Positions 3,149 to 4,655 of a stretch of DNA of 32,000 nt are shown in pieces. A program made the position numbers and the translations under genes. The notes beneath the pieces are model-generated. The model saw nothing but the letters and a program-made list of their open reading frames with translations, ran no database searches and was not told the origin of the DNA. Location: assembly GCF_033372575.1 (NCBI RefSeq), contig NZ_CP104094.1, positions 14,354-46,353 of the forward strand. The letters run 5' to 3'. Origin of the DNA: Candidatus Saccharimonadota bacterium. Lineage in GTDB: Bacteria; Bacteroidota; Bacteroidia; Flavobacteriales; Blattabacteriaceae. Each line of letters opens with the position of its first letter. Positions within the stretch are counted from its first letter, which is position 1.

Positions 3149-4655
3149 AAATAGAAGAATTAATAAAAAATATAAATAAAAAAAAAAGAAAAAAATTATT
3201 AAAAATATTAATAAAAAAAAAAAAAAAAAAAAAAAAAAAATAAAAAAATTAAAAAATAAAAAAAATAAAAAAATAAAAAAAAAAAAAAAAAAAAAAAAAA
3301 AAAAAAAAAAAAAAAAAAAAAAAAAAAAAAAAATAAAAAAAAAAAAAAAAAAAAAAAAAAAAAATAAAAAAAAAAAAAAAAAAAAAAAAAAAAAAAAAAA
3401 AAAAAAAAAAAAAAAAAAAAAAAAAAAAAAAAAAAAAAAAAAAAAAAAAAAAAAAAAAAAAAAAAAATTATTAAAAAAATTAAAAAAAAAAAAAAATAAT
3501 ATAAAGGATAAATATAAATATTCAAAAATTAAAAATATTATAAAATTAAATAAAATATATAATAATAAAAATAATAAATATAATAAAAATGAAAAAAAAT
3601 ATAAATTAAATATAAAATATAATAATGATATAAATATTACATATAAAAATGGGAAATTAACAAATATAATAATTAAAAAAAATATAAAAAAATTAATAAA
3701 AATTAAAAAAATATTAATAAAAAAAATAATTAATAAATATTTAAAATATTTTAGATTTTATAATTATTATTCTTTAATTAATATATTATACTTATCAAAT
3801 AAAAAAAAATATATTTATTTAATAGATATAAAAAACATTTTAATAATAGATTTAAAAATATATTATATATATTTAAAAAATTATAAATATAAAGAAATAA
3901 TAAATGATAATGTATTTATAAAAGTAAAAAATAAAATTAATATTATAGAGGAATATATAATTAATAATAATAAAAAAAAAATAATTAATAATTCAATAAT
4001 TAATATATTATTAAAAAAAAACAGTGAAGTAAATTATTATAAATATAATAATAAAACATTATATATAAATAATATTAACAATATCTATATATATCAAGAT
4101 TATAAAAGTAAATTAATATTATATAATATAGATTATAATAATAGATTAACTTTAAATGATATAAATATAAAATATATAAATAATAAATGTTATACTAGAG
4201 TATATAATATAATAATATTAAGCAAAAATCAAATATTAGAAAATTATATAAATATAAAAAATAATTATAATTATTGTAATAATAAATTATATTATATAGG
4301 AGTTTATAATTATAATTCATATTGTGTAATAAATGGAAATATAAATATAAAAAATAAAACTAAAAATAATATATCATTACAAAATTATAAAAATTTTATT
4401 TTATCTAATAAAGTATTTTTATTTGCTAAACCAGAATTAAATATTAATTCTAATAAAGTAATATGTTCACATGGATTTACATTAGGAAAAATAGATAAAA
4501 ATATAATTTATTATTTATTAACTAGAGGATTAAAATTAAAAAAATGTAAAATAATATTTTATTTATCAAATATTTATAAATATTTAATTTTAAAAAATAA
4601 ATATTTAAATAATATAAAAAATAATATTATTAAAAAATTATATACAATTATTTAA
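3145..4655 (+). CDS. sufD: SufD-like Fe-S assembly protein; the reading frame is interrupted and needs a -1/+2 shift inside a poly(A) run
   Basis: Manual translation shows the frame with codon starts divisible by 3 is stop-free from 3180 to TAA 4653-4655. Its C-terminus reads ...FAKPELNINSNKVICSHGFTLGKIDKNIIYYLLTRGL..., matching the SufD/SufB C-terminal signature (P.LEI..DDVKCSHGAT.G..D...LFYL.SRG). The position between sufC and sufS is canonical. That frame has no ATG, GTG or TTG. The only ATG (3145) is in another frame, which stops at TAA 3241-3243. Confidence 0.6.
3213..3496. repeat. Giant poly(dA) tract (270 A + 14 T, no G/C)
   Basis: Runs counted from the sequence are A28 (3213-3240), A59 (3275-3333), A30 (3335-3364), A102 (3366-3467) and A15 (3482-3496). 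There is no G or C from 3189 to 3505. Confidence 0.95.

Follow-up and report, generated by a model that had tools for sequence, protein, structure and literature searches.

How did a nearly pure poly(A) tract of 284 nucleotides (nt) come to stand inside a retained iron-sulfur (Fe-S) assembly operon, and is the gene that it interrupts still made into protein? The question is raised by sufD in a stretch of 32,000 nt from the contig NZ_CP104094.1 (positions 14,354 to 46,353 of the forward strand), referred to throughout as the window, in which the A-rich tract occupies positions 3213-3496 of the + strand. All best protein matches of the window were found to come from Candidatus Shikimatogenerans bostrichidophilus, and this taxon is the source of the DNA. 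It is a Bacteroidota nutritional symbiont of bostrichid beetles (PMC10284843). The genome of the source strain was found to contain 156,922 bp with a guanine-cytosine (GC) content of ~15%, and the 32-kilobase (kb) window contained ~16% GC with a strongly A-rich + strand.

The gene order at the locus was found to be rsmA, sufB, sufC, sufD and sufS, with intact sufB, sufC and sufS genes flanking sufD. The tract was found at the site of a short lysine-codon run of related strains, followed by the presence of a long, open and conserved sufD body with which the ancestral start codon is out of frame as assembled. On balance, the tract is probably a lineage-specific slippage expansion in a dispensable 5′ segment of sufD, and SufD would then be made past it or across it.

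Composition of the tract and its reading frames

The tract was found to contain 270 A and 14 T nucleotides within a stretch of 317 nt (positions 3189-3505) in which no G or C nucleotide was counted on base count. Five long runs were counted on the + strand, namely A28 (3213-3240), A59 (3275-3333), A30 (3335-3364), an uninterrupted A102 (3366-3467) and A15 (3482-3496). The window contained 156 A runs of at least 8 nt, and the next-longest run, outside the tract, was found to be 17 nt long at 21181. In all these respects (composition, absence of G and C, the five runs and the limit of 17 nt for every other A run of the window) the recount agreed with the preliminary description of this DNA, made from its letters. 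The seven isolated T nucleotides given there were found instead to be six single T nucleotides and four TT pairs, making ten interruptions in all.

Two chance models were applied to these runs. Under first-order Markov statistics (P(A|A)=0.52), 1.7e-4 runs of at least 28 nt and ~2e-25 runs of at least 102 nt are expected; from the runs observed elsewhere than in the tract, by their empirical tail, the figures were 4e-3 and 5e-20, respectively. The tract is far beyond what base composition explains, because both models give tiny expectations. Period 1 was dominant when the tract was analysed with Tandem Repeats Finder, the higher periods redescribing the same array, and no convincing minisatellite unit was found in the tract by that program. 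A minus-strand open reading frame (ORF) at 3208-3525, encoding 105 amino acids of mostly poly-phenylalanine, was rejected as the mirror image of the tract. Other stretches without G or C, of 94-128 nt, were found at 6680-6807, 27595-27693 and 20969-21062, none of them containing an A run above 17 nt. The longest of these lies 5′ of tRNA-Val (6826-6900), which is the sole tRNA of the window and the only feature returned by its Rfam and tRNA scans.

The sufD frame, whose codons begin at multiples of 3, was found to be the sole + frame crossing the tract, and the remaining two + frames end at TAA 3241 and TAA 3257; this much of the preliminary description was confirmed in the three-frame reading. 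Read in the sufD frame, the tract contains 95 codons, of which 84 are AAA (Lys) and the others ATA, AAT or TTA. The T nucleotides of the tract were found to make nine TAA triplets, all of them outside the sufD frame, and the earlier statement that no TAA is formed in that frame was found to hold for each of the ten interruptions. The idea that the placement of the T nucleotides reflects selection for an open frame was given less weight. A + frame is indeed open across the tract, but chance alone gives ~(2/3)^3 x (1/3) = 0.10, a figure which assumes arbitrary lengths for the five long runs and in which the T nucleotides are clustered. The open frame is thus weak evidence, weaker than it appears, and it is compatible with past or present translation across the tract without establishing it.

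The ancestral sufD start codon was found at 3145, where the TGA stop codon of sufC (3146-3148) overlaps it as ATGA. The frame from ATG 3145 (+ strand, frame 1) was found to encode MKIEELIKNINKKKRKKLLKILI, followed by the presence of lysines, and it forms a stub of 32 codons (MKIEELIKNINKKKRKKLLKILIKKKKKKKKK*, 3145-3243) which ends at TAA 3241-3243 right after A28. The first 23 codons of this stub were found to be orthologous to MKIKKIINNINKKKRKKILKLLI in strain C (NZ_CP104096, L003) and to MKLNKLIKNINKKKRIKILKLLK in CP104095 (L001), the two closest strains. The distance from ATG 3145 to the GAT of KDKYKY was 362 nt, against 90 nt in both of these relatives. The net insertion at the tract is therefore 272 nt, which leaves a remainder of 2 on division by 3, and this remainder puts the ancestral ATG in another frame than the tract and the sufD body as assembled.

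The open sufD frame itself extends over 3180-4655 on the + strand (491 codons and TAA), and it was found to contain no ATG, GTG or TTG codon, so that no complete ORF for SufD is present. One A more, or two fewer, would give a single ORF of 503 codons from ATG 3145 with 84 lysines in the 95 tract codons. The permissive interval for joining the ATG frame to the sufD frame was found to be 3180-3240, and within it A28 is the only site at which the two could be connected, whether by a ribosomal shift of -1 or by an additional A in the mRNA.

The sufC-sufD junction in related strains and the sufD body

The sufC-sufD junction was compared across eleven other strains. It was codon-aligned by hand and checked with the ATG-to-GAT distances, as MAFFT slid the short orthologs into the A run. 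An intact sufD with an ATG right after sufC was found in 10 of the 11. Strain C was found to contain A14 at the tract site, which reads KKKKN, in an intact sufD of 405 amino acids, and the same site of CP104095 contains AAAACAAAAAAAAAA (A4-C-A10); the A15 run of the window matches the position of this A14 and of this A10. Five more distant strains were found to contain KKK or KKKK at the site, making seven related strains with three to four lysines in all. The long tract was present in one of the twelve strains, and the longest A run near the junction in the eleven others was 19 nt. Because the relatives carry a short lysine run there, the tract goes back to an ancestral run of lysine codons that expanded in one lineage alone. 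The preliminary description had named a runaway slippage expansion among four possible readings, which it left unranked, and an alignment of this junction as a check. With the tract on the lysine run of the relatives, 362 nt standing against 90 nt, and confined to this strain, that reading is supported.

A common T pattern, TTATTAAAAA[T/A]ATT, was found at both ends of the tract, each copy reading LLK.L in its own frame. The 5′ block, TTATTAAAAATATTAAT (3196-3212, + strand), reads LLKILI in the ATG frame and corresponds to the one ancestral block, TATTAAAATTATTAATT, that strain C has; the 3′ block, TTATTAAAAAAATT (3468-3481, + strand), reads LLKKL in the sufD frame. The two blocks were found to differ at 1 of 14 positions and to start 272 nt apart. 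Their likeness suggests a small duplication of the T-pattern block before the growth of the run between the two copies.

The N-terminal segment of SufD was found to be variable among the strains. In four of them (L007, L008, L010 and L012) sufD encodes 326-358 amino acids and begins directly after sufC, without the ~60 N-terminal residues that include the tract site. The sufD of CP104095 was found to contain an in-frame TAA at codon 36 (L001 3575-3577), where the window and strain C contain TCA. This TAA is followed by the presence of 376 open and conserved codons without ATG, GTG or TTG, and 235 amino acids are annotated in RefSeq. Because two sister lineages damaged the same segment in different ways and kept the body, the N-terminus appears to be dispensable and some downstream translation start appears to be used.

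The gene was assigned to sufD by its place between sufC and sufS in the sufBCDS operon and by an identity of 78-80% to the close strains, and its open frame was found to contain the SUFBD_core domain (PF01458, E=5.3e-36) at residues 249-456. The upstream sufC (2426-3148, + strand) encodes an ATP-binding cassette (ABC) ATPase of 240 amino acids (PF00005, E=6e-21) with 87-89% identity to the SufC of CP104095 and strain C. The earlier placing of the tract between sufC and the conserved part of sufD was right by these gene and domain coordinates. The SufD motifs KPxLxI (KP.L.I) and CSHG were found to be invariant among the orthologs, and at least 376 stop-free codons were found after the tract, the other two frames being rich in stops.

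The N-part of sufD 3′ of the tract (3501-3980, + strand) was found to contain no stops, and its pairwise ratio of nonsynonymous to synonymous substitution rates (dN/dS, omega), taken over 155 codons against CP104095 and strain C, was 0.40-0.54, followed by 0.27-0.32 in the C-part. For comparison, omega was 0.16-0.25 in sufC and sufS and 0.07 in sufB. When the synonymous and nonsynonymous changes unique to each of the three lineages were counted, the N-part was found to contain 6/18 on the window branch versus 3/11 on that of strain C, and the C-part 11/16 versus 11/13. No nonsynonymous excess on the window branch relative to the intact strain C was found in these three-lineage counts. Judged by its conservation, the sufD body (~3501-4655) is still a functional coding sequence under purifying selection. 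The RefSeq model of SufD, WP_420095090.1 (3981-4655, + strand, with an ATA start), takes in only the C-terminal 224 amino acids. At least 155 conserved codons 5′ of it, which are also under purifying selection, are left out, and the model is therefore too short.

Explanations of the tract and other features of the window

From the observed tract, its homology with the lysine runs of the relatives, the relation of the frames and the purifying selection on the body, we infer a slippage origin and two possible routes of expression. The ancestral KKKK run, about A10-A14 in length, is likely to have lengthened through replication slippage, for which a small duplication of the adjoining LLKILI block may have been the seed, and the expansion would be mutation-driven and not a designed element. 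Such an expansion would be tolerated because the first ~60 SufD residues are dispensable in the genus. Ribosomes starting at ATG 3145, which would be translationally coupled to sufC, would end at TAA 3241. By the most likely route, a near-cognate ATA or ATT start codon at or just 3′ of the tract would give an N-terminally shortened SufD, the tract being an untranslated all-A spacer or leader; the candidate start codons would be ATA 3501, ATT 3528, ATT 3537 and ATA 3540. By a second and minority route, the frame would be restored in A28 by an extra A, through slippage of RNA polymerase, or by a -1 slide of the ribosome, and the product would be a SufD with about 84 lysines.

The initiation factor 3 (IF3) gene infC, whose product rejects non-canonical starts, was reported to be missing in Shikimatogenerans, with smpB being kept (bioRxiv 10.1101/2025.10.31.685726). 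Given this reported loss, non-AUG initiation at sufD is plausible. For restoration of the frame, slippage is described as correcting 12-50% of the transcripts at poly(A) frameshifts in Buchnera and Blochmannia, as related in PMC5009743 and PMC3017870. If each of the five runs of the sufD tract randomised the frame, ~3% of the molecules would escape every TAA codon and come out in frame. Reporter protein in E. coli was found to fall to <5% or to an undetectable level with 27-36 consecutive A nucleotides (PMC5263891). Initiation 3′ of the tract is favoured over restoration of the frame, by a modest margin, because translation of poly(A) should be very inefficient and only ~3% of the molecules would be in frame.

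Several points weigh against an expansion of this kind with expression past the tract. A canonical start codon is absent 3′ of the tract and essentially all other genes of the window start with ATG, so that near-cognate initiation at sufD would be an exception among them. The sufD frame is open through all ten T interruptions, which fits translation across the tract at a chance level of ~0.10. Long homopolymers usually tend to contract, and a stable run of 102 nt is unexpected under simple slippage. In CP104095, the TAA codon of sufD might stem from an error in sequencing, or might have arisen by mutation very recently. The assembled run lengths may not be the true ones, which makes the relation of the frames uncertain as well.

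A single further frame anomaly was found in the + strand genes of the window, namely in valS (18652-21251), which is split into ORFs of 699 and 176 codons overlapping at an A14 run (20733-20746). One extra A would restore ...EYIWKLLKKKKNITISSWP..., which, in a comparison resting on a single ortholog, matches the undivided ValS of strain ESQU with 849 amino acids (L014 1247-3796); the homolog search with the ValS fragment returned two distant matches only. The split may be one of the poly(A) frameshifts classically seen in endosymbionts, here in an essential gene, or else a homopolymer error left over in the assembly. It needs the same correction of one additional A as sufD, and it provides a local precedent for the slippage route.

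That the sufD tract is an artefact of assembly or sequencing, in which a real A run of ~14-30 nt was lengthened to 284 nt by mis-assembly, amplification slippage or consensus error, is unlikely; an assembly artefact was also among the readings of the preliminary description. A homopolymer of 102 nt is not sized exactly by any sequencing platform, the A14 run in valS of this window is likewise one A away from an intact frame, and a T78+A48 block at the junction of a duplicated segment in strain DMIN1 (L006) looks suspicious. No second assembly of the strain was found on record by exact-protein look-ups with SufC, SufB, SufS and the RefSeq SufD; DnaJ of the two closest strains was likewise absent from the record. 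Set against these points, the tract falls exactly on a pre-existing A run, both of its flanks are colinear with the orthologous sufC and sufD, and no contig end, rearrangement or duplication junction was found there. The interruptions consist of T only and read as ordinary ATA, AAT and TTA codons, unlike random consensus noise. A frameshift was found at 1 of the 47 A runs of at least 10 nt outside the tract, and the assembly thus handles runs of 10-17 A well elsewhere. Long-read basecallers usually shorten homopolymers, and this also counts against an artefact. Should the tract be real, caution would still be due over its exact length, and with it over the relation of the frames.

The block in DMIN1 (CP099824.1, L006 5173-5298) was found to contain T78 directly followed by A48, followed by the presence of a second sufC tail and sufD copy. 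Positions 5263-6618 of L006 are 99.7% identical to positions 2395-3750, and the first copy contains A19 where the second contains A48. A real duplication joined at a homopolymer, or else a mis-assembly, would account for the block.

That the tract is both real and expressed through, with ~95 AAA/AAN codons translated or with a poly(A) leader of 284 nt driving non-AUG initiation in a cell reported to be without IF3, is unlikely. If translated, the tract with 84 lysines would, to our knowledge, be the longest homopolymeric coding run in a bacterium, and it would point to a tolerance of coding poly(A) like that of Plasmodium.

Distinctly unlikely is a true in-frame poly-lysine insertion, in which A28 would really be one A longer or two shorter and a sufD of 503 codons with an insert of 84 lysines would be read by Plasmodium-like, AAA-adapted translation. 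The sufD frame alone is open across the tract with every interruption avoiding TAA, one added A gives an uninterrupted ORF from the sufC-coupled ATG, the 23 codons 5′ of the tract are still conserved, and the genome already contains 156 A runs of at least 8 nt in 32 kb; in Plasmodium, coding poly(A) runs of 65-132 A are translated (PMC7295572). In the assembly, however, the gene is not in frame, and the open frame would arise by chance in ~10% of cases. Lysine runs in the other ORFs of the window were found to reach 6 at most, versus 34 here, which gives no sign of a general tolerance of very long runs. Bacterial ribosomes are described as stalling or sliding on poly(A) (PMC5263891; Koutmou 2015 as cited in PMC7295572), and the stop of the sister strain in the same N-terminal segment points to relaxed constraint. 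A poly-lysine linker or N-terminal extension, another reading offered by the preliminary description, is unsupported as assembled, the ATG being out of frame and no canonical start being found in the SufD frame.

Alternatively, sufD may be a freshly inactivated pseudogene whose open body reflects recency only. The loss of an in-frame start codon, the RefSeq annotation of a fragment of 224 amino acids only and the disrupted 5′ end of the sister strain would all fit, as would the report that sufBCDE is missing from some Shikimatogenerans genomes (10.1101/2025.10.31.685726). This is very unlikely in view of the at least 376 stop-free codons after the tract, where the other frames stop every few codons. 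The omega values below 1, without branch-specific relaxation versus the intact strain C, and the invariant motifs of the catalytic region also speak against decay, and sufB, sufC and sufS are intact on both sides. With ~51 codon changes on the branch, an estimated ~3-4% of neutral histories would remain stop-free.

A selected regulatory element, either an attenuator keeping SufD well below SufB and SufC or an A-rich leader for initiation independent of a Shine-Dalgarno sequence, would suit the exact position of the tract at the sufC-sufD junction and the preference of Bacteroidota for A-rich, unstructured initiation regions. It is most improbable, although poly(A) tracks lower expression in E. 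coli with their length (PMC5263891), since the tract is present in 1 of 12 strains with A10 and A14 in the two closest relatives, no start codon follows it, its length is far beyond the needs of attenuation, and a scan of 2900-4000 (5% GC) returned no terminators and 19 promoter-like sites versus 12.9 +/- 4.4 in shuffled controls, which is not above background, although a scan says little at so low a GC content. The rigid structural or regulatory element of the preliminary description finds no support on the same grounds of a single strain, a missing terminator and a promoter signal at background.

Elsewhere in the window and its relatives, a Fe-S_biosyn gene (SufA/IscA-like) was found directly 5′ of sufB in strain ESQU (L002 1521-1862); in the window (178-950) and in CP104095, rsmA directly precedes sufB and the Fe-S_biosyn gene was not found at that position. 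An ORF of 105 amino acids at 11564-11881, between rplD and rplB, was found to contain a weak Ribosomal_L23 match (E=1.2e-4) of 22.9 bits, which is under the Pfam cut-off of 30.8. The gene rplW is stated in a preprint to be missing from all Shikimatogenerans genomes, and it may be present at 11564-11881 in a highly diverged form. The literature search returned no paper on the genomes of Shikimatogenerans strains A, B and C, and homopolymers, frameshifts and pseudogenes were not mentioned in the Shikimatogenerans genome paper.

Comparison with known poly(A) systems

In AT-rich endosymbionts, genes are known to erode by way of poly(A) tracts and to be rescued by slippage, the documented cases having tracts of ~9-12 nt and indels of 1 nt. 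If the sufD tract is real, such a tract can expand about twentyfold, up to a pure run of 102 nt, in a retained housekeeping operon whose gene body is visibly undecayed. The locus offers a concrete case for the limits on homopolymer growth after the loss of repair, for gene expression across or just after long poly(A) in a minimal-genome bacterium and for the dispensability of start codons in lineages reported to be without IF3. If expressed through, it would be a natural probe of how RNA polymerase and ribosomes handle homopolymers in extremely reduced genomes. Loci of this kind may have misled a comparative survey in which sufD was scored as absent or incomplete in some Shikimatogenerans genomes.

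The closest likeness was found with the poly(A) frameshifts of Buchnera and Blochmannia (Tamas et al. 2008, as related in PMC5009743 and PMC3017870), which are likewise described from AT-rich reduced genomes. In those accounts the length of an A run changes in a selected and otherwise intact gene, the downstream frame is shifted and a correction of 1 nt is needed. The sufD gene was likewise found to contain an A tract of at least 9 nt with a frame-shifting change of length, the remaining gene being intact and selected, and the A14 of valS (20733-20746) is a textbook example of this class. The scale is different, as the tracts described for Buchnera and Blochmannia in these sources are of ~9-12 nt with indels of 1-2 nt (the Blochmannia genome paper speaks of tracts "as long as 12 bp"; PMC3017870), whereas in sufD the net change is +272 nt and the longest run has 102 nt. 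A series of five long runs would have to be crossed, unlike in Buchnera and Blochmannia. Slippage rescue at sufD is putative, and with initiation 3′ of the sufD tract no rescue might be needed.

Coding poly(A) runs of comparable length are known only from Plasmodium, whose genome is likewise extremely AT-rich and contains AAA-only lysine runs inside ORFs (PMC7295572). The Plasmodium runs are of the same order: 3D7 has one of 65 A, and 111-132 A are given for further strains and species (PMC7295572). Plasmodium is a eukaryote in which the ribosomes were shown to be poly(A)-tolerant and the runs are in frame, numerous and partly conserved (PMC7295572), in contrast to the sufD tract, which is found at one locus of one strain, out of frame as assembled, in a bacterium.

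Engineered poly(A) hypomorphs (PMC5263891) likewise contain A nucleotides right after the start of an ORF, and their bacterial protein output falls with the length of the insert. These inserts of 9-36 A are designed and in frame, whereas the sufD tract is natural, ~8 times longer and out of frame. In phase-variable contingency loci, as presented in PMC9990875 on Mrazek 2007, a mononucleotide repeat in the 5′ coding region likewise sets the frame; according to that account, such tracts are usually <~20 nt and are found in surface or restriction genes with useful switching in host-adapted pathogens. Unlike these loci, sufD serves Fe-S assembly as a housekeeping gene, in a symbiont that is inherited vertically, and belongs to another class of genes. 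The differences in its tract length (A10, A14 and 284 nt) were seen between strains only, and by the features compared sufD does not count among the contingency loci. The sufD tract is thus an extreme case of the known poly(A) weakness of AT-rich symbiont genomes, on a scale not described there, and not a new kind of element.

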